Part shown: positions 2,408 to 44,560 of the stretch, one piece after another
Numbering within the stretch: position 1 is the stretch's first letter
Layout: the number at the start of each line of letters is the position of its first letter
The notes under the pieces: model-generated
The model's database searches: none
The model's input: the letters and a program-made list of their open reading frames with translations, nothing else
Told to the model about the DNA's origin: nothing
Program-made: the position numbers and the translations under genes
Assembly: GCA_905178155.1 (NCBI GenBank)
Contig: CAJINV010000004.1
Coordinates: 2,916,460 to 2,980,459 of the forward strand
Source: Amoebophrya sp. A120
Lineage: Eukaryota; Protista; Dinoflagellata
DNA: 64,000 bases
Reading direction: 5' to 3'

Positions 2408-3109
2408 CTTGGCGTGCGGTGTGGTTCAAACGACACTCAAGATAGAATACGAGTGGACAGGGGACAACAGCACTAGAAATTACCAAAAATGTCGTAAATA
2501 ATTGTGCTAGTTCACGACCAAAAATACAACTATGGATACGAATTGATCGTGGTGCAAGGAGAACGAAGAGTATCATCCCAATCTAGACGAAGCAAAGAAC
2601 CAACAGGAAGAGGTAAAGAAAATAAAATATCAACGTGCCGAATGCGAATTTACGTTTAGCATCTACTTCTACGAAAGCCAAATAAAAAACGCCTAGAATA
2701 GGATATGATATCAGCCTGCTAAACCTCGCCCGGTTGGCCGTAACAAACTTCAGACTAAACCCTATCATAACAGATCTGTCCCTTCGGATTTTGATTTCAA
2801 TGTCTGCCAATTGATAAGAACAAAAAAATAAGGATCGCGGCGCTTACCAGAAGACAATCTCCTGTCAGAACGATGATTACGACATAAAAGCGGCTCCGCA
2901 GAGGCAGAAGTGAAAGTCCTAGGCGTCCTAATAAAAGCACGTAAACACATGGTTCACAAAAATAAAAATAATGAGCGACAGGAACACAAAAATAATGCAT
3001 GAGTTGCAGGAAAAGGCCCTCCAGATGAATCGGGACCACTCAAACAAGAACTAAATAACAACAGCCACGAAGGTGCCTGGTCACAAACATCCACACATTC
3101 ATGCTTCAC

Positions 3110-3570
3110 TGGGCCGGCCGGGGGGCCAGCCACTGCTAGCTAGCCGCGCGCGCGCGGCCCGCCGGCTGCTGCTTCGGGGCACGCAAATTAATGGCCACGC
3201 CCACGGACGAAGCCAGGCGCCTCGGGCATTTCCTGCACAAAGCGACCGGGCAAAGGGCGCCCGGCCGGCGCCCGCGCGCTCCATTCGTAGACGAGACAAA
3301 CACAGCGCCGCCCGGCTACGGGAGACGGCACAGGCAGCCGCAGCGAGCGAAATAATGGCGACCACCACCGAGGGGGTGCGCGCGCAGGACTGCCGGCGCG
3401 CGTAATAGGCCGGGGGCTGCCAAGAACCATGGCGCTGGACCAGCCTACCCAACCAGCCCCGGCGCTGACTGCTCCTGCGCGGGCGAGGTCACCGCCCCCG
3501 CCCCCGGCCCAGCTGTCTGGATGCATTACGCCGGCGCGGCCGCGCGCACATGGGGCGCGGAAGCGCTCGC
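3110..3570. other. GC-rich degenerate island
   Basis: Abrupt, very GC-rich tract (gcgcgc/ggccc runs); ORFs in all frames are Ala/Arg/Pro/Gly-rich with no recognisable motif. Confidence 0.6.
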
Positions 3571-4492
3571 ATCACTGACGCGCAGCGCGTTGATTCTCGA
3601 GTCGCTGACGCCGATCTCTTGCCTCACGCGCCACGACTTGCGCCGGAGGTGGTGTCGCTGACTGCATTCGCCCCCGACCACGCTCTTGCATCTCTTCGAA
3701 GATCAGGCTCGTCCCGATTTCAGTTTCAACTTCCCACGCGAGGCACTCGACCACTCTGAAGCCCCACAATCTCCGGACCACGGGACTGATGACTCGGCTC
3801 TCGACGAAGAGACCTGGTGATGTCGTTGTGTTTATCAATGAAGAAACTCCTCATGATCACGGACAGGTGGGATCTTTCTTTTTGATGCATGTAAAAGATA
3901 TGAAGGCGCAATCATAATACGCAATCGCTCCTCGCGAAAAACATCTGCTTCAGCATCAACAAAACTACGAAACGGTGGTAGTTCTAGTCGTACCGTCTGC
4001 CAATTTTCTGTCAACACTGCGCGCTGCGTAGAGGAGGGCTGGCATACGTGGTACGAAAAAGGTCAACTTAACTCCCGGACGAATGACCTTTTTTTTTTTA
4101 GGTGTTTTTGTGTTATACGATATTCAATGACTCCCTACCATCTCTCGTCGTCATCAGTAAATCCATCACTCTCGTCGTCTCATGCTCCCCATCTCCTTTG
4201 ATTGTAGTGGTCAATTATCGTGGCAACCTCTGCCGTGGACGAATGAAAACTCCAATGCTAGCTTTCAGGAGATAGAGATAATAATAAGTGAAATATAATT
4301 GCGCACGACATGTGCGCTGGTGGTTCGCTACTGGCCACACGACCTACGCCAGAGTTAACTGCTCGCTCTCGTGGCCGACAGGTATACATGCGATGCCGAT
4401 CAACACAAAGATAAAGAAGCAAATATAAATGGCAATGACGTAACTCTTACGCAACGTCCACTGTAAAAAGCGCCTCTCATAGTTTCTTTTTG

Positions 4493-4625: not shown

Positions 4626-4899
4626 TAATTTGCTCAATGATGAAAAAGAATACTAAGGACCGCGCTGAACCAACGACGACCACAATAACAGGCTGTAGTA
4701 GACACGAACATCGAGGAAGGAATAGACACGAACAAGGAAGGTCGAGGCCGAGTGCCTGATCACCAGAAGGCGTCGCTGCTCGGCTGAGTGCGTACAAAGG
4801 TGCCACTGCGGGCCGCACGCAGTCTGTATTTATAGCACCTCCTCTGCAACCACGGCGAAAACAAGGTAAATACCCACCGATCCTCCACCGACGGATGGG

Positions 4900-5330
4900 G
4901 CTGCTAGCTGCAGCGAGCTGCGGAGCGCCTACGTGGCGGGCCCCGGGGCCAAGTGGCCCGCGCTAGCGGGCATGGGGGCAAAAAAATGGGCGATGTCCCT
5001 GGCGGGCAAAACCCCATCTGGCACGCAATCCAGGGTGGGCAGGCTCGTGCACGGTCCCGCCACGGGGCTACCGAAGCTGCCGGGGGCGGGCCCGGGCGGC
5101 CCTTCCGGGTGTTGGCCCCGACATCGCCCGGCCATTGCCGGGGGCCCATTCAAACGGCCCGCGCGCGGCGGAACGAAGCGGGCCAGAAGCAAGGCCGGCG
5201 CCCGGCGGCCTGGGGCCGGCCAAATGCAAAAAATAAGCGGCCCGGGCTAGGGCGCACGGCACAGACAGAGACGGCGCGCGCGGCCCGCCTATAGGCATCA
5301 ACGAAGGAACGCGGCGCGTGCGCGGTCGAT
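4900..5330. other. GC-rich degenerate island
   Basis: Same compositional signature as 3110-3570. Confidence 0.6.
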
Positions 5331-5945
5331 GGAGTCGGCGCCGCTCCTTGTTAGCGCCCGCCCCAGAAAGCTCGATGCTTCGCAGCGTAGTGCTCCAAGG
5401 CGGCGCGATGCTCTGCAGGATGGACGACATTCCTCCTCCATTGATTACCATGGCAGCAGAAGTTGGCGCTCAATTGAAAACGAAAGCTGCAAAGCGCTCG
5501 CCTTTTTTGATGTTGAATTGAGGTCGTGCGTGAGTACTGAAGAACCACACTACGTCTACTTGCGACGCAATTGCATCAAGCGCCGTGTCTCTTGTCTTCT
5601 GATTTCTCCGTAGAGAAGAAGTTTCCTCGTAGTGAATGTTGCTGCTTCGTCCTCTTTCGGATTTGAAAAAGAAACCAAGAGCAAAAGCTGGCTGGCCCAA
5701 CATATGGGTGTGGCCACGCCCAAGATCTCTCTCAGACCTACGCTCGCTCCTGCATGGATCTGCATCTTTCTCAGAAAAAACGCTCGAAGGCGTGTAAAGG
5801 TTAAGGTGACATTTGGCCGAAGAACAATCACAGGAACAGTCCGTAGGACTTGGCGAGCGCGAGACTGACCCTGCGCGACTTAGACATGCCAGGCTCCTGC
5901 CGCTCTGCCTTGGTTCAATAGATTCACACAATTTCAATTACCGCA

Positions 5946-7100: not shown

Positions 7101-9709
7101 CCTGTTTTTCCGTAGTGTATTGTTTGAAAAGGAGTTTCAGGCTCAGATGAGTATTCTCAGACTCGCCGTAGCAGCTAAGCACGCATGTCAAAATACGGCT
7201 CCTGACGATCGCATCACACTCGTCCCGAAACGCATATCATATGACTTACATTTGCGCTCTTTCTTGCGCGGTTGCAAATTGCTTTTACGAATAGCAATAC
7301 CATGCTCCTTTGTAGAAAAGTATCTATGGACATTCAAATGCTATACCGTTTGCCCACAGCTCGTCCAGCTCGGTGAGTTTATTCAACTTCCGAAACGTCC
7401 AGCTCGATACGTTGAATGTCACGTCAAATCTCGCGAGTAAGGGAGCCGCGGTCTTTACCTTGTTTGTTTTTTTTGGTTGAGGAAACCTTTCTACAGCTGC
7501 AAGCCATGAAGACGTCTGATCAGACCATGCAGAGAAAGTTTTCCAAGACCCCGATGAGGAAGGCAGGCTGACCTCTTCCGACAGCCAGGAGTGATGTCTA
7601 CACGACAGTTGGCATAGATGATGAAAAGCAAATAACAACCAAGAGTTACAGCGATGAAAAACGTATTCGCTTTCAAAAATCAAATTTTTTTTTGCCCCCC
7701 TTGAGGGTGGGTCCAGATAGGACCCCGCCGGTGGCCTCGTTGAACTGGAAGGCGTCGGGCAGGTGAGTCGCGGGACCTTTTTTCGTTACCTGAATTACTG
7801 GAGTATGTTGATGATGTCACTGGAGTTGTCTTATTATCTAGCTAGCTTGTCGCGGTGATAGGTAGGGTAAATTTGAGCTCGCATTTGAAGACGTTTTTTT
7901 GCATAGTCCATTGTTGCCGGCGCCGACGCCCCGGAGCTGCGTATCGTCGTGAGTGGCATGTTGGGCACCACTCCAAACACCAAGCCCCGCAACAGAAATG
8001 AAGAAGGACAAACTCTGGCAGAAGATAGTTGCGGCCTGAGATGAACGGTGGAGACTAGTGGCAGCTGGCGCTCATACAAAAAAGCGACGCTCTTTCACCT
8101 GCCTCGGGTTGTTGCGGTGTGTCCGCCCAATTTTGAACACCTTTGGTCTGGGCCCAGGAAAACAGTTGAACCGGCTCGGGCACGTGTCAAAGACTTGAAA
8201 AAGCTGCAAGGCCACGGCCGGCCTTGGTTTGCGCGCATTTTTTGGCGCAAAACACCCATACGGCCGGGGCGCTTCATAGTGGCCCGCTTCTGAGACGAAA
8301 GCGGCTGGCCGCTAAGTTGGCCGCTATGTCGGCCGGCTAGAGTTCGCCCCTCACGGCCCACCACAGCGCAGGGCCTTTTTTGGGAAATCTGGCGCCAAAT
8401 TTCCAAGCCCCGCGCGGCTTTGGCGCATCACGCATGGCCGAAGAATGTGCCCGGGTCCGCCAGACAATTTCTGCCCGGGCGGATTTGCCAGAGATGGCGC
8501 GGCGAAGGGGGGGCGCGGGAAGACCCCCTACTAGGCGCAGGGGCTTTCCTCATTTGGGGTTCTGGCGCCCCAAGATAAAAGACGCGACAGAGTGGCGCTC
8601 CCGCGGGCGCGCGAGCGGATAGTTTTTCTTATCACCTGTGGCGGCAGTGTTGGCATGCTTTCGCACTACCCCCAACGCGCCGCACCCACCCAAAAAGCGC
8701 TAGCGCGGCCGTTGCCCCGCCTGGGAAAACGGGGGAAAGCGCCTGCGACCGTCCCTCTCCCCGGCCCGCCATGTAAGTCGGGAGCCCCACCAAATGAAAT
8801 GGGCGCAAACTTGGCCAAACAGATTGCGGAGCCGACGGGGCCCGCTGCATGCCTTGAGCAACCGCGGGCGATGCGCTTTTCCGCAAGGCGTTCGCCTTTG
8901 GCAATGGTTGCTCCGAGTAGAGGCCGCATTCGCTCGCCCCTCGGCGGGCAGGTCCGACTGCGAGATGCGCAGTTCCGGGTCGGGCGCGCATGGGCTAGCG
9001 GTGGCGCCGTTTTTTTGCATGCGCCAGAGGGGCAGCCGGCACGCCAACAAGTGCCGCAAGCGGTCGCAAGTCGCTCAAGGCCTGCGGCCTTTCGCCGGGG
9101 GGGAAATAAGTCGCAAGCGCTTGCGCGGCGGGCTGGCTCGCGCGGCCAACCGCCTGGCAGCCACGAAGGCGACACGCAGGCCTTTCAAATACGAAGACAG
9201 ACATGACCGCGATGTGGGCTGCCAAACCGCCGAGATGCCGGGCCAAAGCATTTACCACTTAGGCGGCATCTTTTCACTAGGCTTGGGCGCAGAGCTGTTG
9301 GGTCCGTGGCAATGATTATTTCGGCCTCCCGGGAGCCCGAATAATCCTCGCTCAAGGCGTGCCCTTGACCCTCCTTTATGCCCCCCCCTTGAATACCTTT
9401 TTTTGGCACCCAAAAATCGCGAATACCTTTTTTACAGGAGCGGAAAAAGGTACTCACTCGATTTTTATGCCCCTTCCTATGTGCGGCCAAAGCCCTTCAG
9501 ATGACCGACGCAAATGGCCACGGTTTTGGTCCTTCTGGTGGTCAAGGTTTGGCCATGTCGACTCAGGTTATCAAAATGTTGCAAAACTCTTTTCCTGGTA
9601 CAAAGATAGCGAGCATCGCCCGAATGCGGTGGCTCGGCGCGCAGATGGTAGTAGGGTGGTTTCCCAAAAGTTCCGGGCTTCTGTTGGCGTGTTTGCATGA
9701 GCTGGCCGC

Positions 9710-9960
9710 TATCCGGGACAAAAAACGCGCCCACAGTGGGAATTCACGTCGCAGCCTTGTGCATGGGCATTAGCGTCGCAGCTTGAGCATGGCGAATTGA
9801 GTGGATGTGTCATGCAAGGTAGGGAGTTTGTCACGCAATATAGAGGATTTGTAAAAATGCAGGAAATTCGACGCGGTCGCGATTTTGTCATGCAAGGCTT
9901 CATATTTTGGCAATTGCGATGCAGCCACATTGTGGGTTCGTTTTTCCATACGATAGGATA
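9710..9960. mobile_element. Introner nested in the TIR element
   Basis: GCCGC|TATCC...AAAAACGCGCCCACA ... TGTGGGTTCGTTTTT...GGATA|TCCAC; internal TGTCATGCA copies. Confidence 0.65.
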
Positions 9961-10201
9961 TCCACAGTTTGGCGACGTCGTGCAGCTGCTGGCCGTCCAC
10001 CCCGAAGAGGTCGACCCCGAGACGCTTCCACCTAACGAGGACGTCGAGCCGCCGGGGGTCGACGGTCTTTATGCTGCTCCGCCCGACACGGCTACGACGG
10101 TCCGGAGAACCCATTTGCAGCAAGCGCAGGAATGGATGAGGACGAGCAAGGGAATGACCACGCGGAGAACCATGGGAGTGGCAAGCTGTCCGACCTGCAG
10201 A

Positions 10202-10520
10202 TATGCACGGAAAAACGTCACCCCTGTTGACCAAATTTGTATTGCTGATTTCGTGGCATGGCGCAGATTGCCATGCTGAATTTGTCATGCATGCCGGGGA
10301 GCTGCGACTCCCTATCATCCTGGGCTAAAAATGGTCCCTGCGTTACAGGCTGCACATATCGCGCGTGACAAGTTTTTTGGTATATCTAACTGCGCAAAAG
10401 TGCCGCGGTCTTGCGAAGATTTGTAATGCAGTTTCGGCTCGGTGTGTGAATTTGTCATGCATAACTAAGACGAAAGAGCAATACAAATTTGGCAGGGGGT
10501 GATTCGTTTTTCATGGGATG
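10202..10520. mobile_element. Introner nested in the TIR element
   Basis: About 40-bp TIR GAAAAACGTCACCCCTG..CCAAATTTGTATTGCT / AGCAATACAAATTTGGCAGGGGGTGATTCGTTTTTC; TSD and right-hand TA are degenerate. Confidence 0.7.
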
Positions 10521-10591
10521 ACGAAGGATCCGGAACCTACAGCGGAGTCTCTTGAATATTTCGAAGGAGTGGGGCACATTCTCGGGGAGCC

Positions 10592-10747
10592 TATCCATTG
10601 CAAAAGTATCACACCAACATAAATTGCAGCCATGCGTCTACAGATCTGTTGTCCTAACGTACTACGCATCACAAATCCCGGCTGTCTCCTTGAAAAATTT
10701 AATATTGTGTCGCAATTTATAACAGTGCGATATTTTTGCAAAGCATA
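10592..10747. mobile_element. Introner, family A, nested in the TIR element
   Basis: GAGCC|TATCCATTGCAAAAGTATCACAC...GTGCGATATTTTTGCAAAGCATA|GAGCC. Confidence 0.85.
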
Positions 10748-11258
10748 GAGCCTCTACGCCGCCAATTTCTCCCTTGACAAGCTGCACCTCGCAACGACAT
10801 TCGACGCCGAATATTGAGTCCCGAAGAGATGGCGGGCGTTTCACCGGAACCAGTGGGAGAACTGTTGTCGAGTCTGGGCGTGGTCGATCACTAGCCGCGG
10901 CGCTTCGGACTGGTGCCCAGACCGGATGGCATTGCTGGGAGGCTCCTGTCGCTGATGAGTGTCTACCTGCTGCCGACATCTGTCACAAAACGTCTCAAAT
11001 GCTATCTACTTTACACTAGCTATCACCGCGACAAGCTACATACCTTCATTCGCATTCTCATTCATCACTATCAGGCTACATCTCAAAAAAAAGGAATTGA
11101 TAGGTCGGAGAATCCGGAGCCGCTTGTGGGGCCGCTGAGCCGGGTGACGCGGATGAGGACAGTCGGGCCGGATGCTGTAAAGGGGCCTCAAAAAAATTTG
11201 AATTTTGAAAGCGAATACGTTTTTCACCCTTGTAAGAGTGTACCACCGCTTCGGCCGT

Positions 11259-11409
11259 AACGCCCACTTTTTTGGCGATGGTGGTGCCTGCGGTCGCCGT
11301 CCCGCGCGACGATGCGCGGGGACCGAGGTCTGCTTGAACGCCCACTTCTTTCGCGATGGATGGTGGTGCCTGCGGTCGCCGTCCCGCGCGACGATGCGCG
11401 GAGACCGAG
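11259..11409. repeat. Two-copy ~78-bp direct repeat just outside the element's right end
   Basis: AACGCCCACTT..GCGATGG..TGGTGCCTGCGGTCGCCGTCCCGCGCGACGATGCGCGG.GACCGAG at 11259 and 11337. Confidence 0.85.
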
Positions 11410-12615
11410 ATCTCCTCCCCTCATATGAAGCCACTCGTCGAACACATCGAATTGCTGGACCGTCCAAGCCCCGTATCAAAGAGAAAACTAAGGAGCATGG
11501 TCCCACGTACAGTCAGTCAACACGATGCTACTAATGGTCCTACAATACAAATTCTGGCACCACTGGCTGCTCTGATACAGAAACAGGCAAAGATATGACA
11601 TGCATGGGCGGAGGAAAAAGCGACCTTCTGTGCCGGCCTAGCAATACTGTTACTGCTGCGACGAGCAAATTAAATGCAAATGGACCGCATGCGAATAAGA
11701 AGGACCACAGACTGACAAAGTGGAAACGGACAGCGGCAGCGCGCTCCTATAGTTATCCATGGCTTGCTCGGGCTAATACGGGCGAGGACGTGAGGATCAC
11801 ATCAATCGGGTATTTCTCCGCAGATTCTTTACCGAGGGTTACAGTTTGCCAAATCTGGTACGTGCCGTCATCGATGTGTTTCTGAATCTTTTGCCCCTGA
11901 GTCAGTTCGCGGTGATCCTCCATGATTTTTCTTTCTGGCACTTCTACTTTTTTTTTGCCTACTAGAGTTTGATGCCTGAAATCTGTTCGACTCTAAGCCT
12001 TAGAGTTAGACTGAACCTGTTCGACCCCTACTAGAATTTACTTATCAATATTCGGTAAAGGTGAAGGTGTATAGAATCCCAAATGCAATCCAAATCTATA
12101 ACTTCTCGTCCACGACAGGTACGAAAGAGCCTGCGCGACAAGAATTCTTGCCTTGTCAAATAAGTCTGTGATGAACATAGCGCAACGGTTTTCGTTGACT
12201 TTTTGTAGTTTGGCTTTCGTCGCTCGCATGTCAACATATTAAAGGCGAAGAAACTGTCAACAGACTAGCATCCGTCCTCTCTTCTCCGGCATGTCTCGAT
12301 GAAGCCAATTTCGGTGGTACTTGTTCAGCACAAACGCACTCGTCTCGTTTCGCTCAGCCTCCGGAGCGAAACTTCTCTCGCCTCAGCCTCCGGAAAAAAT
12401 GCGGTCTGTCTTTTGTATGCGTCCTTCTCTCGTGGTTGATATTGTTAGACAAACGAAAACAAAAGCTCGACTATATCGCTCGTCGGTGCCCTTTTTTCAG
12501 CAATCACTGTTTTTCACGAACGACGAACTAAAAAAAAAATCGTTTTGAGGTGTGCGTGTGATGTTCTGTAATTATCAACATCCTGTTCGGCACTGGGAAC
12601 ACGGACAAAGAACAT

Positions 12616-14330
12616 CCGGGGAAAAATGGCTGCTAACAAAGATCACCGAGCTTCCGGGGAAAAATGGCTGCTAAACCAAATGGCAGCCATTTTCCCCCGG
12701 CTCGTGAAGGGGAAGTACAGGGCGAAAATGGCTGCTAAACCAAATAGCAGCCATTTTGCCCAGCAGGTGGCTCTACCGCAAAGAGCAATTATTTTTCCAT
12801 CCGCGAATTTTCAAAATCTTATTTTTATCGCGTTCGAAAAACCGCGAAACTTCAAAAATTTATTTTTATCACCGGTAAAAAAAAGCACTACACTTATTTT
12901 GTCGGTGGATGGGCGGGTAGGCAAGGAGGACTGGCCGGTCACATGGACCGGCATCACCTTCCGGTGAAAAATGGCTGCTAAACCAAATAGCAGCCATTTT
13001 TCACCTGCTCCTCAAGGGGAGCTCCTAGGGAAAAATGGCTGCTAAACCAAATAGCAGCCATTTTTCACCTGTTCTTCAACGGGAGCTTCCGGGGAAAAAT
13101 GGCTGCTAAACCAAATAGCAGCCATTTTTCACCTGCTCTTCAAGGGGAGCTTCCGGGGAAAAATGGCTGCTAAACCAAATAGCAGCCATTTTTCACCTGC
13201 TCTTCAAGGGGAACTTCCGGGGAAAAATGGCTGCTAAACCAAATAGCAGCCATTTTTCCCCTGCTCTTCAAGGGGAGCTTCCGGGGAAAAATGGCTGCTA
13301 AACCAAATAGCAGCCATTTTTCACCTGCTCTTCAAGGGGAACTTCCGGGGAAAAATGGCTGCTAAACCAAATAGCAGCCATTTTTCCCCGGCTCGTCAAG
13401 GTGCAGGGCGAAAATGGCTGCTAAACCAAATAGCAGCCATTTTGCCCCGCAGGTGGTTCTACCGCAAAGAGCAATTATTTTTCCATCCGCGAATTTTCAA
13501 AATTTTATTTTTATCGCGTTCGAAAAACCGCGAAACTTCAAAAATTTATTTTTATCACCGGTAAAAAAAAGCAATACACTTATTTTGTCGGTGGATGGGC
13601 GGGTAGGCAAGGAGGACTGGCCGGTCACATGGACCGGCATCACCTTCCGGTGAAAAATGGCTGCTAAACCAAATAGCAGCCATTTTTCACCTGCTCCTCA
13701 AGGGGAGCTCCTAGGGAAAAATGGCTGCTAAACCAAATAGCAGCCATTTTTCACCTGTTCTTCAACGGGAGCTTCCGGGGAAAAATGGCTGCTAAACCAA
13801 ATAGCAGCCATTTTTCACCTGCTCTTCAAGGGGAGCTTCCGGGGAAAAATGGCTGCTAAACCAAATAGCAGCCATTTTTCACCTGCTCTTCAAGGGGAAC
13901 TTCCGGGGAAAAATGGCTGCTAAACCAAATAGCAGCCATTTTTCCCCTGCTCTTCAAGGGGAGCTTCCGGGGAAAAATGGCTGCTAAACCAAATAGCAGC
14001 CATTTTTCCCCGCCTCGTCAAGGGGAAGCGCAGGGCGAAAATGGCTGCTAAACCAAATAGCAGCCATTTTGCCGAGGTGCGTCTACCGGAAAGAGCAACT
14101 ATTTTTCCATCCGCGAATTTTCAAAATTCTATTTTTATCGCCTCCAAAAAACCGCGAAACTTTAAAAATTTATTTTTATTGCCGGTAAAAAAAAGCACTA
14201 CACTTATTTTGTCGGTGGGTGGGCGGGTAGGCAAGGTGGACTGGCCGGTCACCTGGACCGGCCTCACCTTCCGGTGAAAAATGGCTGCTAAACCAAATAG
14301 CAGCCATTTTTTCCCGGCTCTTCAAGCGGA
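12616..14330. repeat. Higher-order tandem array of 37-bp palindromes (64-bp period) with three ~205-bp spacer units
   Basis: 18 full copies plus 1 partial of GAAAAATGGCTGCTA-AACCAAA-TAGCAGCCATTTTTC, in blocks of 2/8/7/1. Blocks are separated by near-identical long units at about 12760, 13445 and 14070. Confidence 0.95.
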
Positions 14331-14665
14331 AGTCGGCGGAGTTGCATGTTGTAGTTCCCTGTGCAGATGGAGGGCTCAAAGTTTGTGACGAACAAGCTGA
14401 CGAAAGTCGCGGCTGCGCGAAATTTTGGTGTCTCCATTGTTTCATATGTGCAGATGGGGTCCTTAAGGAAACTTTCCCACTTCGGCTTCGACTTCACGGT
14501 AATATTCACCTACATCAGCTAGCTATAGCTTCGCTTTAGTACATACTGTTGTTTGATGGTCCTCGTTGTGTGACAACTCTGTTATATTGGTGGCTCTGTT
14601 TTTGTGCAATTGAAATGCTTGGAATCAGGTGGCGAAGTTGAAACACCTCAACCAACCCGCACCAA

Positions 14666-17600
14666 TCAAATGCGCAACTCCAAGACGGGCGCGTCTGCTT
14701 CCTCGTCGTGGTCCTCGATTATTGCAGAGGCGGAAGAAAAATGTTGCTCGGTATCGTCATGACTTGAAATGGCTTCCTCAGGACCAGCTGACGCCTCTTG
14801 GTGTTCCTTTATCCCTCCGTTTGTCGTCGTCTCACCGGACGAACACTTGGCTCCTTTACCGGCAGCAGCTGCATTTACTCTGGCACCACTCCTAGTACCT
14901 CTACATGGCTCATCTTCGTGCACAAGAAACAGACTCGGGTCGACGAAAGGCACTACGTTCTGCGCATGATCCGTGGTCCTCCCGGAGGTGGTGGAGCGGC
15001 TAGTCTCGCAACTACAACGATGGCCTTCGTCTACTTCATGACGGTAAAACTGACCTCCCAACACCCTAGAATTTTCGTTTTCCTCCCCCGCAGCACCAGT
15101 CGATGCAAGTTTTCCGGAGCCGAAAATAGCAGAAGAGAAAGGCGCGGCGGTTGTTGTTCCTGCCTTTCTTGTGCCGCGGTATGGAAATAAGTCGTCTTGT
15201 TTCGACGTCGTTGTACTAGCGTTAGTAAAAGGTCGCATGATCCTACTTGCATCTTCAGGCTGACTACTATCTAGTGGTGCTGCTCCTCCGTGTAGTGTTT
15301 GTTCCCCTGATGAAGTAAATTGGTCAGCACCTCCTCCTCCTGCTGCCACTTCCAGTTCTCCATCTCTCCCACGGCCCTCCCGATCTTCCTCCAGCTTTTC
15401 CCTTTCCGCGCACAAAGCGTACTTCCGATCCCGGTCCCGCAGCAGCTGCACCATTTTTTTCTTCTTCCGGGCCACACTGGACCCCCGGGCGCGGTGGCGG
15501 TGCGAAAATTTCTGCACGCCGTTCACGCACAGCTCCCAGGGCATCATGCTGGGTCGGCGGAACAGTTTAACGCCCTTGGGCACGTGCACCGCGAACTCCT
15601 TGCTGCCGAACCCGCTGACGGCCACCCAACCAAGCCCGGCGATCGCAATGTCGTCCCACGTATCCAGGAAAAAACACCCACTTCCATTGAATTTGTCATG
15701 CAATTCATGCGTAAGTTCCTTTGTTTGTCCTGCAAAAAATGGATGGGTGTTTTTTCCTGGATACCATGCGCGGTGGTTACTGCCGAAGACACGGACGTTG
15801 TGCTTCACAAAGTCGAACTTCGCAAACGTTTCCTTCAGGTGCGGCGGGTAGAAAAAGGACCCCGCCTTCCGCTCCATCGCGTCTTCGGCTTTGCCCGTGT
15901 TGCACACGTGCAAAGTCACGTTTTTCGAGAAGAAGCACGTCACAAACGCGAAGGTGCTCGGCTCCAGCAGGTCAATCCGGGCGAGGGCGCCAATGATCAA
16001 GCTGCGCCCGGGTTTCAGTGCGTATGTGACCGGCTGGAGCTGCGAACGGGGGACTACATCGTACAGGTCTTGCAGACAGTGTTGCGGAAGATTGGTATTT
16101 CCACCGTCAGCAGAACCCTCAAGCTGCTGCTGACTGCCACCCGGCAGCAACTTGCTCGTCATCTGGTGCGTGGAGGGGACGCCTGGTGTGTCGATGAGCT
16201 TGAAATTTCGGGGCAGGGAAAACGACAAGAAATGCGCAGTTGTCCCAGGTAAGGGGGCGCGGGTGATGCCTCCGCAACCCCGCTTCCAGTCGATCGTCGG
16301 AAGGTGTCGATATCCGATGTACTTCAGATATGCAATGCAGATGTTGTAGTATTTTTCAAGTATTCGTCGTACTACTGTTCGCTGCAATCATCCTGCAACA
16401 CAAATTCAAATCAAATCTTCTACCACCTAATGGTAATGCTCATCCATGCTACTCTGTAGCATGACTAAAATTCCAAATTCACATGCGGATCATATATACA
16501 ACTTCTTCATCATTCATAGCAGAAACCGCTCGACAAACGTCGTCTTTCCGGCGTTCACCCGGCCCGTCACGTAGATGTGCTTCTTGTTCTCGATTTCCAT
16601 TTGCTGTTCGGGCGTTAAGAGCTGCAAACCGTTTTCTTTTTTACCGGATGACGACAATGTCGTAGTACTGAAGATATCGTCCTGATGATCACTAACACCA
16701 CCAGTGTTAATAGCGGTCTTTCCTGCCGACAGTTGGTACTTCTTGACACTTCTATTGCGGCCCTGGTCATGCTCATGCTCATCTTCATCATTCCTCGTCC
16801 CACTTCTCTTCTCCTCTTCCTGGTCCAGTGCGTCTGCGATGTAGTACTTGAGGCGCTCTTCCAGCTGGTCAAAATTCCGCTCCGTCGCGGCGGACACGAG
16901 CACGACATCGGCAGACTTCACGTTTCGCACCTGCCGTGCCATGTGCCGCACCCACAGCTTGATCCGCTGCTCGTTGGCTTTCGCGGGAAGTAAATCCAAC
17001 TTGTTCAAGACGAACAAGACGGAGCAGTGGCGGTTCCGGCAGGCCACGTAGAGTTCCGGACAGAGACTCGCTTCGAAATCCAACAGGTCGACGACCTGCA
17101 GCACGACGGAGTGCGGCCGGATCTGCTGCACGATTTTGTCCACAATCTCGTTGGGGTGCTTGTACAAAGCCCCCGTCTCCTCGTCGACCTTGTAAAAGGG
17201 ATTTTGCAACATGGAAATTGGGGAAATCATCGCCGCAGTGGTTGTTTTCTTCCTGGCGCGTTCTACTTGCGGAGGTTTCTCTTTCTTCATATTCTCGTTC
17301 AACTGTCGTGGTACATCGGAAGGGCCGCGGGCCGCACGAGTGGTGTCTGTTATGGTGCGATCTACTGCGACATCACTAGCATCATGCTGCCTCGTTTTTG
17401 ATTCATTGTCATTTTCATTGCTTCTCTTGGTTTCCGCACACTCGGTGTTCTGGACCACTTCCTTTCCCTGACGACTTCCAGGCTCTTTCTCCTCATCTCC
17501 TAACAGTTCTTTATTCCCTCGGCATGTTGATGGCGTCGGCAGCGGCGGCAGGCACTTGTACTGCTGCAGCCGCCAGCAGCGCTGACAGACCAGCAACCTG

Positions 17601-21203: not shown

Positions 21204-23856
21204 TTACGCTGCACTCGTCGGCGTCGTGTAGTCGGCCTGCTCGTGGTCCTCTCCTCTTCCCGTCAACCCACCACCTAAAAAACCCGCACTTTTACTCCGC
21301 TGCTCACTCGCGAGCCGCTCTAGAATCTTCGACGGCGGCAAATTCGCGTCGACCCGGAGTTCCACACACAGCGTCTTCCAGAAGTTTTTCAGCTCATGTA
21401 GCCGAGCGAAGACCGTGTTCATCGCGGGCAACACCCCTTCGAGTTCCTTCACGTCAAACAGCTGCATGAAGTGCCGCACAATCTTCATGACCAAATCCTG
21501 GCTGCTCTGCAAGTCCACGTCGACCTCCGCGAAAAACTTCTTCGTTTGCAGAATTCGGTTTTCGAACTCCACCAATCCCTGCACTGCGAGCAGGATCTCG
21601 TCCCGCGTCTTCTCCGTCTGTATTTTGTCTTTGCGCATCCTCTCCAGCGCGGTCAGGGTTGCAGAAGGCATGTTGGGGTTGTTCTCGCTGGAAGATAGAG
21701 ATGATTTCAGATTTTTATCGCCGGTTGTCAGTAAGTTCTTCCTGACCTTCTCTCCCCCGATCAAACCGTCGATCGCCTCGTCAACAAGCTGGGCGTTCCG
21801 CACCAGCGACGGCCCGCCGAGAACCTTGCCGCCAGTGGACCGTCGGGTGGCCAGGGCGGCGAGAAGATCTGATAAAAATGCCGTAATATGACACCAAAAA
21901 CGAAATAAAACTGCTAAATGACGTGAACGTGATTGGAATTTGGCATGCACGCATGCGCGGGAAACGAAGATGCCCAAATTTGTATTGCATAGCATGCATG
22001 ATAGAGAAAATTTGTTACTTATGCATCATGATGATGGGCATGCGTTATACCTTCGAAGAATTTGAACCAGTGTTCCAGGCTCATGGCATCGAGCTTCCAC
22101 TTGCGGATTTTCTTTACCAGCATGTCTTGGTCGACGTAGTCGTTTTCCTCGTCCAGACAGTCCCCGAAATCGCGAAAGCGCGCCCGAAACGCGGCGACGC
22201 CGCTGCCCCCCGCGCCGCCGCCCGTCGAGCCGCCGGACCCGAGCCCGGCGCCCGCGTAGATGCGGTAGATTTCCTCGGCAAACGCCCGGAGGTTGGGAAG
22301 ATATCCTGTGCAAAAGTATCGCACTCGTAGTAATCCCAGTCATGCATTACAAATCTCCATCCCAAGGCAAAACAGCATGACAAATTCCATTTGCCATGCT
22401 GGGCCAACTTGTAATGCAATTACTACTAGTACGAGGACTACGATACTTTTGCAATGCATAGAAGACTTCGCTCCACCATCTTGCACATCATCTCGATCGC
22501 CTTCTCGCCCTCCTGCAGGTCGGCCAGCTTCAGCTGCATCAGCACCGCGGTACAGAACCGCCGCAGTTCGATCGGGTCCAGGTGCTCCAGCTCCGGCAGA
22601 TTCTTCATTTTGCGCCGCCGGTTCAGCGAATGCAGCTTGCGGTCGGCGTCCATCATGGTTCGCGGGTCCGCCTTCTTCCACGTCTGTTTCACCTGCCCGG
22701 AGGGGTCGCGCGCTCGCTGCAGCTCGGCACCTAGGGGGAGATGCGAGGTAGATGCAGTAGAGTAGAGCTAGATTCTGCAGAACAGAATATGAACATACAA
22801 GAAGAGAAGACCGAAAGCTTTAGCTTGTGATAAGTCAGCTAGTACATGTACAACATGTTGACTACAGCAAAACATGACTAGTACGCATGGTCGCGATGTC
22901 CCGATGCGAGGGTCGCTCGATCAATTCCTGCTCGAGCTGGTGGATAATCCGGTCCTTGGTCCGGATCTCCTCCAAAAACGTCGTGCGTTCCTCTTCCCAC
23001 TGCTTCAGTCCGCGCAAATACTGCTCCCGCTCGTCCTGCAGCTGTCGGCGCAACGTAGCCATCGTCGTATCGCGGTCCCGTTGCGGCCAATCGTCGCGGC
23101 TGGACGTTGCGGGAACGAAACCAGAGGAACATCCGGATGCCGTTTGGGTCGGAAGTTGTACGGGGCCTTCTGTCACGTACACAGGGGCCGGGTTTGTTCG
23201 AGGAAGGGCTGATGTGTCGTAGGCGGTATACGCTGCTCCTGCGGTACGACCTTCATGGGCATGGGTTTAAACTACACAATTTTTAGCGGCAGCCGCAACA
23301 TTTATTTGGTCGAGACAGGCAATTCTTGCCACTTTTTTCGTGTCATGGAGACTGCACTGAAATCGCTCCACCTTTTTTTGCTCTACTGTACTTGATGAAC
23401 ATACACATGGATGACATAAGTACCTGAAGCACCGCCGCCCCCAGATCCTAGGCCTGTTTGAAGGTAAGACCCTCCTTGTGCCATAGCTGCACTTCCCGAC
23501 GACATGGTGTAACCCCTGGTCGGAGCAGCGCCGGCACTCGCAGCAGAAAGCGGCACAGCTGCCCCCGCCTCCCCACCTCCGGCCGGAAGTGCAGTGCCTG
23601 TAGCTCCTCCAGCACCCTGTGGTATTTCTTGCCCTAGAAGTTGCTGGCGCAATTCGAATTCAGGCGTGATTTGTGTGAACTCCGTGCCCCGGTGGGCGTA
23701 TTCCTTGGCGTACCGAAGCCGCTGCCGCTCCAGCACCGCGGCGATTTCGGGGTCATCGCGAAACGAGGACTCATCACTCGACGAACTACTGCTGGATGGC
23801 GAAGAGCGGTCGCTTTGAGTCGGCGCGGGTTGTCGTTCTTGCGGTGCAGTAGACAT
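21204..23856 (-). CDS. CEP70: CEP70-like centrosomal/basal-body coiled-coil protein
   Basis: C-terminal HFMQLFDVKELEGVLPAMNTVFARLHELKN resembles the CEP70 C-terminal motif. GT-AG introns at 21869-22050, 22731-22884 and 23251-23423 plus the introner at 22302-22460 give a continuous frame. Confidence 0.7.
22302..22460. mobile_element. Introner, family A (159 bp)
   Basis: GAAGA|TATCCTGTGCAAAAGTATCG...CGATACTTTTGCAATGCATA|GAAGA. Highly similar to 37743-37901; removal gives ERSLPNLRAF. Confidence 0.92.
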
Positions 23857-28852: not shown

Positions 28853-31800
28853 CTACGAGGCCCCGGAGACCGGTTTCACCTTCGTCCCCGTCACCATCAC
28901 TCTGGTCGGATCATTGTCCAAAACCGACAAATTCCCGTTCTAATATGCATTGCAAAAAGCATCGTACTAGTACAAATTGCAATGCAAATTGGTCCAGGAG
29001 AAAATATCCAACTTGTGATGCTGATTTCCCTTCGGCGATAGATCTGTCATGCATGACCATGACCGCGATTAGTACGACTACGATACAACTTTTGCACAGG
29101 ATATCGAAATCGACTCGGCGATCTGCTTGGTCGCAGTGTGAATCATGGGGTTGTTCCAGTGGCAGAGAGTAGCGATGGAAGGATTGTTGCTGCAGTTCTT
29201 ACTATCCAGTTTCGCACACAACCGCTCGTATTCCGCTGCAGTCATGGGCTCGCTTCCATGATTCGCTCCTTCATTTGTTGAAGAACCACCCGAGGCCGTA
29301 GAGTGTTCTGCGAAGAGGGTCAAGCACCGCAGGAAGCCGCCACCATGCGCATAAGCCAGGTCCTGGACGACGGTGGTGTAACCTGTGATGGTCATGGTGC
29401 GTAAACAGCTTGCTCTAGTATGAGAAACAAATGTGGGATTATTACGCAGTAGTACTCCTGCACCACAATTAGGCTGCCATGCAAGTGCAACAACTCGACG
29501 GCATAACAAACTTGCGAAGATATTCATATTCGGGTGTCATCCTAATCTTAGTATTCTCTTATAGTCTTCTTGATGCACATGCAGCGTTTGCGTTGTAGTA
29601 GTTTGTGTATTTTCCTTTCCATTTATCCTTCATCTACTAAAGCACTATACCTTCCTTCTCCAAAATCCCCTGCAAGGTCGGGCACCGGGGCGGAATGATG
29701 GCCAACCGCTTTGCCTTTTCCAACAGGTTCGCGCAGTTGCGCTCGTCGACCAGAATGGAGTTCAGCGCAAACGCCATCCACTCCTGCTTGGGAATCAGAA
29801 ACACCTCGTCGAAGATATAACCTGCTCAGCTGTTACAATTATCTCAAACGTTAGAATAGAATATGAAAATCTATGATGCAAGAAGTGCATGATCTAGCGA
29901 AATCTACTGATAGGGTTGCGCATGACAAGTTCCGGAGCCCTAAACCCCACGACGATCTGGCGAAATTTGTATTGCAAAAGGTGGAACGCTGTGCGAATCT
30001 GTCATGCTCATCATGCAACACAAATCTCAGATTCTATTGTAACGTTTGAGATTGTAACGTTTGAGGAGGTCATAGAACACCTCGCTCCGCAGTTTCTGCA
30101 GCGACGCGTCGGTGAGAACCTGATCGCCCACACACGCTTTCCCGTATGAAAGTGCACGACTCCCCTTCCCCCTCATTTGTATTGCATGAACAGCAACTCA
30201 AGCGTCAGCAAGAATACAGGTTTTGCATGACAAATTTGGGTAGGCGTGTAGTGCTATTTGGGGCCGCCAGAACTTATCATGCAAACAGTGCCAAGAGCCC
30301 AGGCGTAAATTAGGCATTTTGCATGACAAATGAGGCCGAGGCGGAGTTGTGCACTCTCATATCCCGTTGAACAGGGAAAGAATCGCCAGGTCTTGGTGGT
30401 AGCCGTGGGCCTTGTCCTTGGCCTCCACGATGATCACCTCGTCCGGAAAAGAATCGATTTTCAGCACGTCCTTCGCCAAGGTGATCACGTCTTGGTACGC
30501 GTTCTTGTCCGACCGACTGCTGTCAAACCCGAGTAACACGTTCTTCTTTTTCTCCGAAGAAGTTGTCACTTTCACCGACACCAGGTCCGCCATCCCCTCG
30601 AAGGTCTTCGCCAATTCGAGCGGAAACCAGCCGAGCTGCAACGCTACCGCCCGCATGAACGGGTTCTCCAGTTGCCGCTCGAGCATGCGCGGGGATTGCA
30701 CGATGAAAACCTCCTTGTTGTCCAAAACGGGGGATTTCCCGAGGTACAGCCCAAGATTCGCCAAGTAAACGGCGTCCGCCATGCTGCTGATCAGGGAGTC
30801 AAACACAGACTTCACTTTCTTCTCGATAAACGGCTTCTGGATTCTTGCGTCGTCGTCGGATATTAACACTGCGAGGGACGTGCGGTTCTCGATCTTATTT
30901 TCAAGAACATCCTCATCTGCGATATTAGAAGTCGAGTAGTTCTTCGTCTTCGTCACGAGGGAGTCCGTCTTGGCCCGTTTGCGCGGCGGCTCCTCAAGAA
31001 GCAGAGCAGAAGTCATCACTTCGTCCGAGCTCGGTGAAGAACTGCTGGACAGAAACGCAGCGGCATGGTCACGTTTGGTGGAGGACGCGCGGGAGCTGCA
31101 GCTGGTCGTCGAGCGCGTTGAGGTGGAGAAGGAAGCCTTCCGGAACGTGTCGGCGTCTGTTGCGTTTTGGTTAGTGCCGGACGACGAGAGACCGCCCTGT
31201 AACTGCTCCTGGTTTTCCTTTTCCTCCTGCTCATCGTAGTTGTGCTTCTCGTTCAGCCGCAGAATCGCTTCGACCACCTGCTTTTCCAGTTCCGGACGCG
31301 CCTTTTTCAGCTTAGAAGTAGTGGACGAAGCCATGCTGGGAGAAGAATTTGAATTCATCTTTGGCGAAATAGCAGTAGAGCCTCCGGATGAAACACCACT
31401 GTTCTTGTTCGAAGACATCCAGTGCGCTCCCAGCGTTTTCACAATCTCGGCCTTTGCACCCTCCGAAAAGTAGTTGCCCCGAATCCCGGCCAGAATCAGG
31501 TCCAGGGGGAAACAGGTCTGCATCGGCTGGATTGCCTTAACGGTGATCGATGAAGCTCCTCCTTCGCCGCAACTAAAGCCTCCGCTTGATGTTAACGTCG
31601 CGCTGTCATTTTCACCATTGGCGTTGTTCTTCATCTTCTTTGGGCTTTTTGCGCTTGATGCAGTCGTGGCGGTGCCCTTGACCTTGTCCTGCATGGAAGA
31701 AGTAGAAGTAGAACTTTTAGTACTATCCAGCGCGAAATGGCGACTGATCGTGCGGTGCAGTTTGATGAGCTCCGACGAGAATTTGCTCCGCACGTTTTTC

Positions 31801-36431: not shown

Positions 36432-39400
36432 CTATCGTCGCTTTTTCTTAGCGGGCCTGGAAGATGCCTCCACGAGCTCCTCATCGTCATCGCTTCGGTC
36501 TTGCCGACGACGCCCTCGCTCCCGATCGCGGTCTCGTCGGTTCGTAACGTCCTCTATCTCGTCGTCGTCGTTGTCTTTATTTTCGTCGGCTGAGCCGCCT
36601 CTAGTTCGGCCACGGTCCCGCTCTGATCTGGTGCCGTTATTCCTTCTACTGCTCTTGTCTCGGCGTTCTCGTTTGGAGGTTGTCGTGTTTCTGTCCTTTT
36701 CGTCCTCTCCACCGCTTACTATTTCATCTGGCCTGTCCTGTGTCGACCGCCGGTCTCGCCTGTCTGCTCGCTCTCGTCTTTCTTCACGAGGGGAAACCTT
36801 ATCACCTCCGCCCCGACGCTTGTTGTCCTTTTCGTCCCTACTTCGTGGACGAGATCTCCGGTCTTCAGCAGCGTCACCCCGACCACCCCGTCTTTCCCGG
36901 TCCCTGTCACGCCGATCGTCGCGCCGAGATCGCGAAGGGGCACGTGGTCTTTCCCGGTCGTGGTTCTCTCCACCTGCTCGTGGCGACCTTCTATCGCGGT
37001 TCTTGTTCTCTCTTTGTTCCCGATCGCGGTCTTGATTTCTTCGTTCTTTCTCCTTCATGTCTCGTGGTCGTTCGACAAGAACTTCATCTTCGCCTTGTTC
37101 CTCGTCCGTTGAACGTTTATTTTCTCCGGTCTTGTTTTCTGGGGTACTACGGTCGTCCCTACGACCCCCTCCCCGTCGCGCCTCCCGGTCCCGCTCCCGC
37201 TCCCTCTCCCGCTCCTTTTCCCGCTCGCTTCTACTCACCGCCTCCTGAATTTTCCTCACGCGCTCCTCGACCTGCTCCTTGAACCGCGTCGGCCACGGCG
37301 CAATCACTGCGGGGAGAAACATCTCGGACTCTTTCTGGAGGAGCAGTTCGTAGTTGTGTTTCCCCAGTCGCCGAAGTAGCTTTTTGGTCAACGTCTTCCA
37401 GAAAGATTTTTCCACCTGGGGTATCTCGTTGGAGGTGGTCCCATCCTCGGCGGAGGAGTTGTCGTTTTGGTTTTTGTCGTTAATGTTCATACTTTCCTGT
37501 CGCTGCAGTTGCTCGTCCTGGAGAAAGTTTCCCACGATCATACCGAGTTCCAGCATTTGCTTCATGGACAGCTGGTTCTGCTCCCGCTCGAGTTCCAACC
37601 GCTTCCTCGTAACTTCGTCAACTTGTTGGTCCTTGTCCGCCTTCCGTTCCTTCCTGTCTTCCTCCTGCAGCAAAGACCAGCTGGATTTCATCTCCGTCAG
37701 CATCTGGTCCCAGAACGCCAGCAATTGGTTCAATTCCTTGCGTATTCTGTGCAAAAGTATCGCACTCGTAGTAATTATCGCAGTCATGCATTACAAATCT
37801 CCATCCCAAGGCAAAACAGCATCACAAATTCCAATTATCATTTTGAGGTAATCGTAATTTGTATTGCAGTTACTACTAGTACGATACTTTTGCAGTTCAT
37901 ATTGCGCAGATCCGCGGACCGCATTTGGAAGTTTATCGTGGAAGACAAAAGCCCTTCCGTGTAGCAAAGGAGCTGCGGAAGCGGTAGGGACGAAACCCGG
38001 TTTTGCACGTCCTGGCTGGCGGCCTCGAAAAATTGCACCACTTCCAGGGGCATGTCGTCCAGGGAAAGCGCGCCACAAACACTGTTGCAAGCGAGCAGCA
38101 CCTTGGTCAGGTCCCTGAGAGGAGTGAGGAGGAAGGTTAGAGGTAGTGCTAGATGTTTTTGATGGTCGTGACAGATTTTTTTGAGGGAACAAGGCAAAGA
38201 ATTCACACAAAAAAAGCTATAAGCCTATCATAAAGGCGACGACGTTCTTCTTGACTTGTTTGTTCTACTTCATCCAGCGGCGCAAGAAGGAATGATAAAT
38301 AATCAAGCCAAAAAAACCGTAATCTCAAGTACTTTCCCGATGAAAAGTCGGCGACTTTGACTTTCCCAAACGCGGTCACGAACGCGCTTGTCAAATGCGG
38401 TCGCACCTCCGTGTCCAACAGCGCCTCACTCTCCGGGTCGGTCGCCAACCGCGCGAAGGCCTTGGCCAGAAGGAACAGGAGCTGACTCACCTCGTTGGTC
38501 TTCAGCGTGCTTTTGATGTGCATTGGTGCCGCTTTCGCGATGTCGGTTAACCGTACCCGACTTAACCGCACCGACTGGCTGGCGGCCTGCGCCAGGTGAA
38601 TCAGCGCGGGCGGCGTGGCAAGGAAGGGTGAGACGTCGTTCAGAATATTTGCCGTCGCTTCCTCGGGCGCCGTTTCGCGATCCAGGTGGGCGGCGACCCC
38701 CAGGGCAAGGACTTCGGCAAAATCGTCCTTATGCAGCTGGCCACGTGAAAACTCCACGATGCAAGCGTCGACTAGGGTGGGGATCTGTCAAGGGTAGTAG
38801 TTTCGTGGAGATGTTTATTTTCAATTTTATCATCGATTATGCACAAAATCGAACTCGAAGTAGTCAAAGAAAAGATTAGCATTAGTTTCGATCGTGCAAA
38901 AAATTGAAGTCCAAATTCATTATTCATCGGGTGAAAAGCAAACATCCATCGTATAAAGTACCTCAGCCACGCAGAGCAGGATGTCTCGCTTTTTCGGGCT
39001 TAGCGTTTCTTTGGGAAGCTTCTGCAGCAGCGCCCGGCCGACCGTCTCGACAAAGAGCGGCATCTCCATTTTCCTTGCGGTTTTCACCACCCCTAGTAGC
39101 TTTTCCGTCGAGCTGCCACTAATCGCGTCCGCGCACAACACGCTCAACTGCGTGTCCACGTCCGCGGCCTTCAATGGCAGAGTGAGCAGCACTTCCAGCT
39201 CCTCAATGCTCGCAATCCGCCAGTACTTGAGCAAGGTGGTCGACACCGTGTCACTACTGCCGTTCGAAAACGCTTGATACGCCCCGTCTAGCTTTTTCGC
39301 AAACAGCTCCGCGAGCTTCTCCCGCACTTTCAGTTTCGCCTGACTCAGGTTCTTATCCTCGATGCTGTTGATCAGTAAATCGAGGGTGACAAACCGGTGC

Positions 39401-42599: not shown

Positions 42600-44560
42600 C
42601 ACCGGCCTCTCAAGGTGTGATCTTGCACTAGTGTGCCCCCCCAGTGCTAAAATCCCGCAACTTCATGATCGGTCTCCTTCTCCGGGATGGTGCTTCTAGT
42701 GTTGTATGTTCTTACGCCGCCGAGGGCCAAAATGAGAAAAAAAAAACTAAAACTAGAACTTGAACTACAACTGCCGCCAAGGAGTATAATGCAAGACCAC
42801 GAAGTCACAGCATCAAAAAGATCTGACCAATGAACACCAGCATGGGGGCGGAACCTTGCGTGCGCAGTTGTCAGGCGGGTCGGAAAATCGGACAAATAAA
42901 CATGTCTCATCTATATCGCCCAGGGCGAAATTTGCCCGAAGCACATGTTGCGCAATTCAGAACGGCAATTCGACCCGAAGTCCCTCTGCCACAGGCCGCG
43001 CCCACCCCGGGCGCGCGCGGCGACCGGGGTAAGTCAGTTGACTCACTCCTCTCCCGCGCGCGCCGGCCACAACTAGGTAGCCCGCTGACCATCCAGCAGG
43101 ATGGGCGCGGCAGGATCGGGTTGGTGGGCGAACATCTGGCCGCCCCCACCGCCCACGCAAATTTAACTGCTGCCACCCACCCCTCCCTCAGAGTGAGAGA
43201 GACGCCCACGCCCGCCACGCCCCTACCGTGGCTGGCAGGGCGGGGGCGCAAGAATGCAGCCGCCTATAGGCGACCGCGCCGGGGCCTACCGGGCGCGAGG
43301 AAGGGGCGGGCGCTAGCTAACGCGGCGCGCGAAGGCCCGCCCGCCGCGCGCCCCCCCCGCCGTCCGGCCCAAATACCCGCCAAGAGGGCCGCCCAGCCCG
43401 GGCAATCAACAACAGCACGGACCGCGCTCCCTCTGTCTCCTGGTCCTTCTTGGCGGCGCGCCATCGGCCGCGACCAGTTTCCAACCGGAAGAGCGCGCTT
43501 TGCTCCTTCCGGGCCCGCCGGCCCGCCGGGGCACCCAAAGCGGCCGCCTTCGGGGCCGGAAATATTCCCCCGGAAGGCGGGCCGCCCGAAGCCCCGCGCA
43601 TTTCCCTAGGTGGCCGCGCCGAAGAGGTCCCTACCTTCGGGAAGGCGCGGCCGTTTGGCGGTGTTGCTGCCTGGGCCCCCGCTTCGCACCAACCGAAAAG
43701 CACAAAACGCAAAGCCCAAGGGGGCAGATGCTTTGCGCTCCTAGCAAGCCGAGCGGCGCGGCCGGCCTCTTCCCACTGGTGTACATGGCGACGAAATCCA
43801 ACAAACGCGGCAAGGGTTACGACAGAACACAACTCGCCGCGCTATGCCTATGCGCCACCCGCGGGCGCGCGGGGCTTCGTTCGTGGTGGCTGTGGGAACG
43901 TGGGGCGCAACATGCTGGAACACCCGGGGCGGGCGGGCGCGCCTAAGGCACCGACCCGGGCCGGCCCTTGGGGGGCACAGGCAGCGGGGGGCCCAAGGGG
44001 GAAGGGCCCACCACACCCTGTCCCGCAAACGCGTGCGCCTGCCCGGGAGCGCGCGGGGCCCGCCTGCGCGCGTTCGCTCCCCCTGTGGCGCATGCTTAGC
44101 GGGCTGCGCCTTGCGCTTCGCGCACAATAGTAACTAGGCCCAAGTCCGGCGCCCGCTGTTTTCTGAGGCGTAGCGGCCTGCTTTGTCGAAAGGGGCCGCA
44201 AGAACTTCGCCAAGCTCTGCGCGCTGATCATCGCACGGACGCCCGGCGCCTCCCGCGGCGGAGCGGGCGCCCGCTGCGCCTCTCGCCTTGGGCCGACTGG
44301 AAAAACCTGCGCGCCCACCCAAGCAGCGCCGTGCCGCGGCTGTGTCTGTTCGCGCGAACTATGTCACGCGCGGCATCCTTTCCACACAACGCACCAGCCG
44401 GAAGCCCATGCCACGCACTGCCGCGGCCCCCGCCGGGGGGCTTTATCGACGGCGCAACCGCCGCGACCTTTCTGCCCCGGCCCCTCGACGCCTTCACGGC
44501 CCTGGCAACGGCCTTCCTCTAGTTGGCCTTTGCGGTGGAGAAGCGCTCTAGGGACCCAGC
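42600..44560. other. Intergenic repeat relic with GC-rich degenerate island (~42960-44560)
   Basis: About 1.6 kb of extreme GC content with spurious ORFs in all six frames, between the DnaJ and DPY19 genes. Confidence 0.6.

Follow-up and report, generated by a model that had tools for sequence, protein, structure and literature searches.

In Amoebophrya sp. A120, 29,850 repeated introns have been described, and the introners of this strain carry an inverted-repeat motif formed by TAT, seven nucleotides and AAA, together with direct repeats of 3-5 nt (Farhat et al. 2021, PMC7789003). No transposase is reported for A120; two putative transposases are mentioned in strain A25 only, and a general mobilization by transposases is rejected (Farhat et al. 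2021, PMC7789003). In a later study, most A120 introner families were classed as DNA elements with terminal inverted repeats (TIRs), and family 38, of about 810 bp, was labeled 'Ginger' with '5-bp TSD, TA/TA Termini' (TSD, target-site duplication), TIRs of 49-53 bp, integrase-like homology and Copia/Gypsy-like frames (Gozashti et al. 2025, PMC12130899). Elements of the IS3EU/GingerRoot superfamily are described with TA..TA ends, duplications of 6 bp (rarely 7-8 bp) and integrase-like transposases; fungal IS3EU termini read TAYGG..CCRTA, and of the GingerRoot copies that carry gene fragments most are devoid of the DDE motif, which 6 of 22 keep (PMC10045372, PMC6839031, PMC12730594). Here we analyzed a stretch of 64,000 nucleotides of A120 (GCA_905178155.1, contig CAJINV010000004.1, positions 2,916,460 to 2,980,459 of the forward strand; hereafter the window), in which a 3588-bp element occupies positions 7647-11234. 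A previous sequence-only reading had proposed this element as a candidate autonomous 'master' of the introners. In the parts of the Amoebophrya and dinoflagellate introner and transposase literature examined, no description of a 3.6-kb element of this kind was found.

The 3588-bp segment is a genuine TIR DNA transposon and not a chance arrangement. It is bounded by AGAGT-TACA..TGTA-AGAGT, with inverted repeats at its termini and the target duplication on either side, so that the duplication, the ends and the 3.6-kb size given by the sequence-only reading all hold. The outer inverted repeats, estimated before at about 55 bp, measure 56 nt with 86% identity. The features that define the ends are as follows.

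7642-7646, plus strand: left copy of the target duplication AGAGT (5 bp), read from the sequence.
7647-7702, plus strand: left outer TIR, 56 nt, starting TAC-N7-AAAAA, from the inverted-repeat alignment.
7843-7897, plus strand: left inner mirror block, offset 197-251, holding an exact 19-mer, from alignment and shuffles.
7962-7977, plus strand: left third mirror block, offset 316-331, an exact 9-mer on the diagonal.
10904-10919, minus strand: right third mirror block, an exact 9-mer on the diagonal.
10987-11038, minus strand: right inner mirror block, from alignment and shuffles.
11179-11234, minus strand: right outer TIR, from the inverted-repeat alignment; contigs show several different flanks beyond 11234.
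11235-11239, plus strand: right copy of the target duplication AGAGT, read from the sequence.

When the window, excluding the satellite at 12450-14450, was searched for 5-bp repeats outside TA..TA ends with at least 16 of 20 paired bases, seven elements were obtained (the 3588-bp element and six short elements, whose lengths are 156-253 bp), compared with none in each of 10 simulated windows. At a laxer cut (12/20 paired) the window gave 12 and the simulations 0-6, and thus the weaker rows are partly due to chance. The inner 19-mer begins at offset 197 from either end, in agreement with the 196 bp reported before, and extends to 55 nt at 85% identity, while the third block lies on the same exact diagonal as the others, a result equalled in 1 of 2000 shuffles. 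The left and right spacers at 57-196 are unalike, since 131 of 1000 shuffles align equally well. Therefore, each end consists of three mirror blocks in register and not of a single long repeat: the bipartite TIR of about 250 bp proposed earlier is right in its paired outer and inner blocks and wrong in its continuity, and it overlooked the third block. Nowhere else in the window are the inner mirror blocks matched, and the idea that the 19-mer marks the end of a nested element was discarded, the flanking duplication being absent. A TIR 23-mer gave no match in metagenomes and a TIR 24-mer none in viral contigs; the inner 19-mer gave three matches in metagenomes, whose similarity does not go past 19-22 nt and which were taken as chance.

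The element is present in other copies with different surroundings. Variants, loose ends and contig pieces are, here and below, those among the matches listed for public runs, of which X1 and X2 are DNA runs and X3, X4 and X6 probable RNA. At the right boundary, other-copy flanks begin with ACCCG (X3) and TTGAC (X4), and two more are found mixed in X2; at the left boundary, other-copy flanks in X3 end in TACTT and AGCTA and may be right ends aligned on the left TIR. Different flanks thus occur at the same boundaries in X2, X3 and X4 (left and right flanks unpaired), which refutes a constant AGAGT flank. The left-flank DNA contig stops at 7676, 30 nt into the TIR, as would be expected at an assembly branch. 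Summed contig depth in X2, which is not a copy number, rose from about 46 at the flank to 67 in the interior and to 538-554 over the right TIR, and these values fit few full copies and more ends. The interiors of other copies are rearranged: joints 8309-9369 (8310-9368 absent) and 7865-11044 were observed, as were changes of strand at 7913/9618 and 9019/10976, and the outer breakpoints of the rearranged copies fall just inside the second mirror blocks. Two further observations concern the interior: the alternative sequence that follows 10087 overlaps with a loose end running into the start of the TIR, which suggests a self-insertion or a tandem junction, and the first 7 bases of the TIR recur at 10538-10544 in the present copy.

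At this locus the element sits in a pre-existing intron and has created none, which sets it apart from an introner that itself forms an intron.

7459-11243, minus strand: canonical GT-AG host intron of 3785 nt, from the joint 7455-11241 in X3 and X6.

The joint in X3 and X6 leaves out 7456-11240; shifted by 3 nt, the missing segment has CT..AC ends, and the joint therefore corresponds to a GT-AG intron on the minus strand. The RNA status of X3, X4 and X6 is a program's guess, none of the listed runs with the sequence being on record as RNA and the strand being unknown; it is backed by canonical intron skips, which are absent from the DNA run X1. The element lies 9 nt behind the intron donor, so that 9 nt precede and 188 nt follow it within the intron, and it is removed whole together with the host intron; subtracting the element and one copy of the repeat leaves an intron of 192 nt. 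The GC content of the window is 51%, and all stop-free frames of at least 350 aa (10/10) are on the minus strand; the gene of the element is thus oriented against the host block, as had been noticed before.

How close the element stands to the introners was judged mainly by its ends. Its ends read TAC, seven bases and AAAAA, whereas the short elements of the window read TAT, seven variable bases and an A-run. A profile was built from the 16 ends of eight short elements, of which one lies nested inside the 3588-bp element, one has a repeat with a mismatch and one was obtained at the laxer cut. Over profile positions 4-16, the two ends of the 3588-bp element rank 142 and 57 among 4662 TA sites, and these ranks fall inside the leave-one-out ranks of the short ends themselves (1-347). 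Compared with the A120-type motif of TAT, 7 nt and AAA, the A-run and a short direct repeat are thus present, the third base is C, and the ends are in the top 1-5% of TA sites. The earlier claim that the TIR differs from those of the introners beyond the terminal TA is therefore not sustained, and the link to the introners is somewhat stronger than that reading held, since TAC-N7-AAAAA is close to TAT-N7-AAA. Its companion claim, that short introners share the end geometry, is confirmed by the 5-bp repeats and TA..TA ends of six short elements. This shared geometry and the A-run fit a mobilization by the same kind of enzyme, as far as can be read from the termini.

Three A120-type inserts are nested in the 3588-bp element; these introners are short and non-coding, whereas the element is about ten times longer, starts with TAC and has inner mirror blocks. 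Family 38, compared by its published description only, has in common with the element the 5-bp TSD and TA/TA ends, and differs in that it measures about 810 bp, itself forms introns and shows Copia/Gypsy homology, whereas the element is lodged in a pre-existing intron and has no such homology. In the window, short TAT..ATA elements were observed at 15661-15763, 22302-22460, 30145-30361, 37743-37901, 39927-40239, 45310-45562 and 46982-47204; six of these seven have exact 5-bp repeats, all different, and one a mismatched repeat, and by inner sequence they form at least three subfamilies. An introner-like TAT end with no clear partner end is also found at 11474, in a non-canonical host intron of 307 nt (11470-11776).

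Between its ends, the element likely carries a short gene, interrupted by three inserts that are skipped in the probable RNA contigs.

8200-9300, no strand: GC-rich island (64% GC), like three other islands of the window in composition and not in sequence.
9501-9704, plus strand: exon 1 of the inner frame from the first Met (frame open from 9393), from contig joints and translation.
9705-9955, no strand: nested introner-type insert with TIRs at 9710-9955 and a decayed direct repeat, skipped by the joint 9704-9956 in X3 and X6.
9956-10197, plus strand: exon 2 of the inner frame, from contig joints; another copy diverges after 10087.
10198-10522, no strand: nested degenerate insert, skipped by the joint 10197-10523 in probable RNA contigs, the letters between the sides being not known.
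10523-10586, plus strand: exon 3 of the inner frame, from contig joints.
10587-10747, no strand: nested introner GAGCC-TAT..ATA-GAGCC of 156 bp plus one repeat copy, skipped by the joint 10586-10748 in probable RNA contigs.
10748-10777, plus strand: exon 4, closing the inner frame with its stop codon, from contig joints and translation.

After splicing, the plus-strand frame stays open over 215 codons, from 9393 to its stop at 10775, and over 179 if counted from the first Met. Preservation of the frame over three joints gives weak support for coding, since 3 of 27 frame combinations give at least 179 codons. For the variants, 30 of the 40 rows listed were classed (those dropped were 2 rows from the left spacer and 8 from 10273-10537). 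In 9393-9704, 6 of the 9 listed variants are synonymous (expected fraction 0.28, P 0.019, in one of six frames), and from the first Met 4 of 6 (P 0.054). The stops at 10775 and 10892 are untouched by any of the 19 variant rows listed, and RNA-type contigs span 10748-11032 with no difference from the present copy. The open spliced frame and the invariant stops thus make a short gene likely, and the 'decayed + strand gene' of the sequence-only reading keeps its frame and its strand, whereas a longer, decayed gene is not shown. A better supported transcript-like contig differs from the present copy in 10 letters and has other sequence after 10087. In addition, probable RNA contigs covering 10523-11032, identical to the present copy, lack the nested introner, even though the element lies in an intron of the opposite strand; this may reflect either a plus-strand transcript of the element or excision from within the host intron.

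The product of this frame was not recognized. Protein searches covering the host proteome gave no relative that could be a parent gene of the cargo; since 2 of 8 host frames were found by exact look-up, the host annotation is present in the protein collection. A MaoC dehydratase suggested for exon 1 (Atlas 0.84, below the 0.9 mark, 115/256 features) was rejected, there being no Pfam support and 320 of 2000 shuffles being as good with a one-sequence profile; a second Atlas query returned only unnamed clusters at 0.75-0.76. A single-sequence model of exon 1 (pLDDT 64, pTM 0.36, two helices) gave no Foldseek match at E 0.001, the model being poor and uninformative. Rfam gave no matches, and a hairpin at 9360-9500 was no better than shuffles (z -0.76).

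Searches for a transposase were equally blank. Pfam, run on 24 frames and then on all 82 stop-free frames of at least 30 aa plus two exons, gave only unrelated weak matches (best E 0.013), and NCBIfam (10 pieces) and PHROGs (13 pieces) gave nothing named. A phmmer search with 9701-10276 over 1.84 billion proteins returned no hits, and word-based protein searches with exon 1, at near and longer lengths, and with 10748-11035 read through with X found no relative; of 14 plasmid records at E 2-5 in tblastn, none was accepted. A profile of the rve type, built from nine bacterial transposases and not from eukaryotic IS3EU, scored no higher than -2.2 bits, whether the frames were spliced or not, with 27 of 100 shuffled sets as good, in comparison with 18-90 bits for held-out IS groups; spliced products were tested against small self-built profiles only. 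No DDE, recombinase or HUH family match was thus obtained in any frame, and neither a transposase nor a recognizable relic of known families was found in the present copy, whose longest spliced frame has 179-215 codons. Therefore, the role of autonomous master is not supported. A transposase may still be encoded by another member of the family, the other copies having been incompletely read.

By its ends, the element would be closest to the IS3EU/GingerRoot superfamily. It has the TA..TA termini, a similar size range and gene-fragment cargo of the kind often accompanied by loss of the DDE motif; on the other hand, its duplication is of 5 bp and not of 6 bp, it shows no integrase-like transposase, and its TIRs are three separate blocks. 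Since the 6-bp duplication and the integrase-like DDE transposase are lacking, the element is not filed under this superfamily, even though it works like such an element. A 5-bp target duplication is also described for hAT5 (PMC12730594), and no frame of the element has a hAT family match in Pfam.

Taking these results together, we lean towards the view that this is a non-autonomous 3.6-kb inverted-repeat transposon with a short cargo gene and no detectable transposase, moved in trans by a cut-and-paste enzyme of the introner type. The inner mirror blocks, like the TAY-N7-AAAA end, would be bound by a DDE transposase encoded elsewhere, and this enzyme would cut its target with a 5-nt stagger, as is established for TIR elements with a 5-bp repeat. 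Judging from the termini, this enzyme would belong to the integrase-like group (IS3EU/GingerRoot, Ginger). Some 260-330 bp at each end would constitute the mobile unit, and the interior would be an exchangeable cargo that later gained three introners of its own. For the earlier proposal that a transposase of the element's family mobilizes the introners, this keeps the same kind of enzyme, which the end geometry and the subterminal A-run fit, and drops the autonomy.

Several results weigh against this explanation. The third base of the element is C, in contrast to T in all 16 of the 16 short-element ends, and including position 3 lowers the ranks to 247 and 118 of 4662. The two ends of the element are, moreover, not independent of each other, and the profile ranks are thus moderate support. 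The full sequence was read for one copy only, and the RNA status and transcript strand of X3, X4 and X6 are subject to the limits given above. Evidence for coding is mixed, as none of the five listed variants in exon 2 is synonymous, and with no parent gene found, a captured host gene is not shown.

More tentatively, the family of the element could represent the long extreme of the introner lineage of A120 itself: a full-length member elsewhere in the genome would encode an unrecognized integrase-like transposase with a 5-nt stagger that reads TAY-N7-AAAA ends, the tens of thousands of TAT-type introners would be its minimal derivatives, and the three mirror blocks at fixed distances its binding sites. 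It is rather unlikely, in turn, that the present copy is what internal deletion has left of an autonomous element; in that case the short frame would have an accessory or DNA-binding role, and the catalytic part would survive in a longer copy, such as the one diverging after 10087. The better supported probable transcript does share exons 1-2 and then runs on for at least 255 unlike letters (depth 151 in X3 and 88 in X4), and no host parent gene came up in the protein searches; nevertheless, this continuation opens with a stop codon in the exon-2 frame, its 30 visible letters overlap the loose end leading into the TIR, and the spliced frames hold no integrase-type remnant. Exon 1 also has an ungapped match at E of about 1 to TetR helix-turn-helix chains, and IS481EU N-termini are described as TetR-like, but the likeness fails a direct test, in which 172 of 2000 shuffles were as good and 2 of 13 profile rows were probably mis-cut, and TetR was rejected as an identity for exon 1.

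We consider it improbable that the element belongs to a separate family, moved by a different transposase, which has TA ends and a 5-bp stagger in common with the introners through their superfamily alone. The TAC ends as opposed to TAT, the inner mirror blocks unmatched in the window, profile ranks only in the top 1-5% and the assignment of A120 introners to many transposable element types (Gozashti et al. 2025, PMC12130899) would agree with this; in the short elements, however, the A-run likewise falls at positions 11-15, and GAAAAACG at positions 10-17 is common to the element and one of its nested inserts. A decayed master, whose frame would encode a transposase too divergent for present libraries, is very unlikely. 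Blank library searches are what a new fold would give, the frame is antisense to all long host frames, and it can be read past two stops to the right end, but it has only 179-215 codons, the stops are invariant in all DNA and probable RNA contigs among the matches listed, the read-through part has no relative, and exon 2 lacks a synonymous bias. Two-part inverted repeats are typical of inverted repeat/direct repeat elements of the Tc1/mariner type; such an element, with CA..TG ends, a duplicated TA (present at both ends) and AGAGT matched by chance, can hardly be credited here, the odds of a chance 5-bp match being about 1 in 1000 and six strongly paired short elements of the window having the same kind of 5-bp repeat outside their TA.

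Some neighboring features of the window are recorded here. An 82-bp tandem duplication lies inside a host exon (11277-11416) and would cause a frameshift unless one copy is spliced out. The satellite at 12600-14300 consists of 64-bp units that contain an inverted repeat, and it is itself organized in larger repeated blocks together with a 41-bp unit. GC-rich islands (67-69%) occur between minus-strand genes at 3000-3700, 4800-5450 and 42900-44600, and a TATA-like word on the minus strand at 4827-4835 suggests that these islands may be promoters.

The end class with a 5-bp TSD and TA/TA termini has already been published for A120, and the present element is a new member of it. No A120 transposase has been reported that would account for the introner invasion, and the present copy does not supply one. 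What it does show is that elements of kilobase size, with a gene on board, a low copy number and an introner-type end geometry, exist and move. Its long and specific TIR ends offer a clean query for longer relatives and a probe for the missing transposase, and the exact spacing of the three mirror blocks over unrelated spacers leads to testable predictions of the binding sites.

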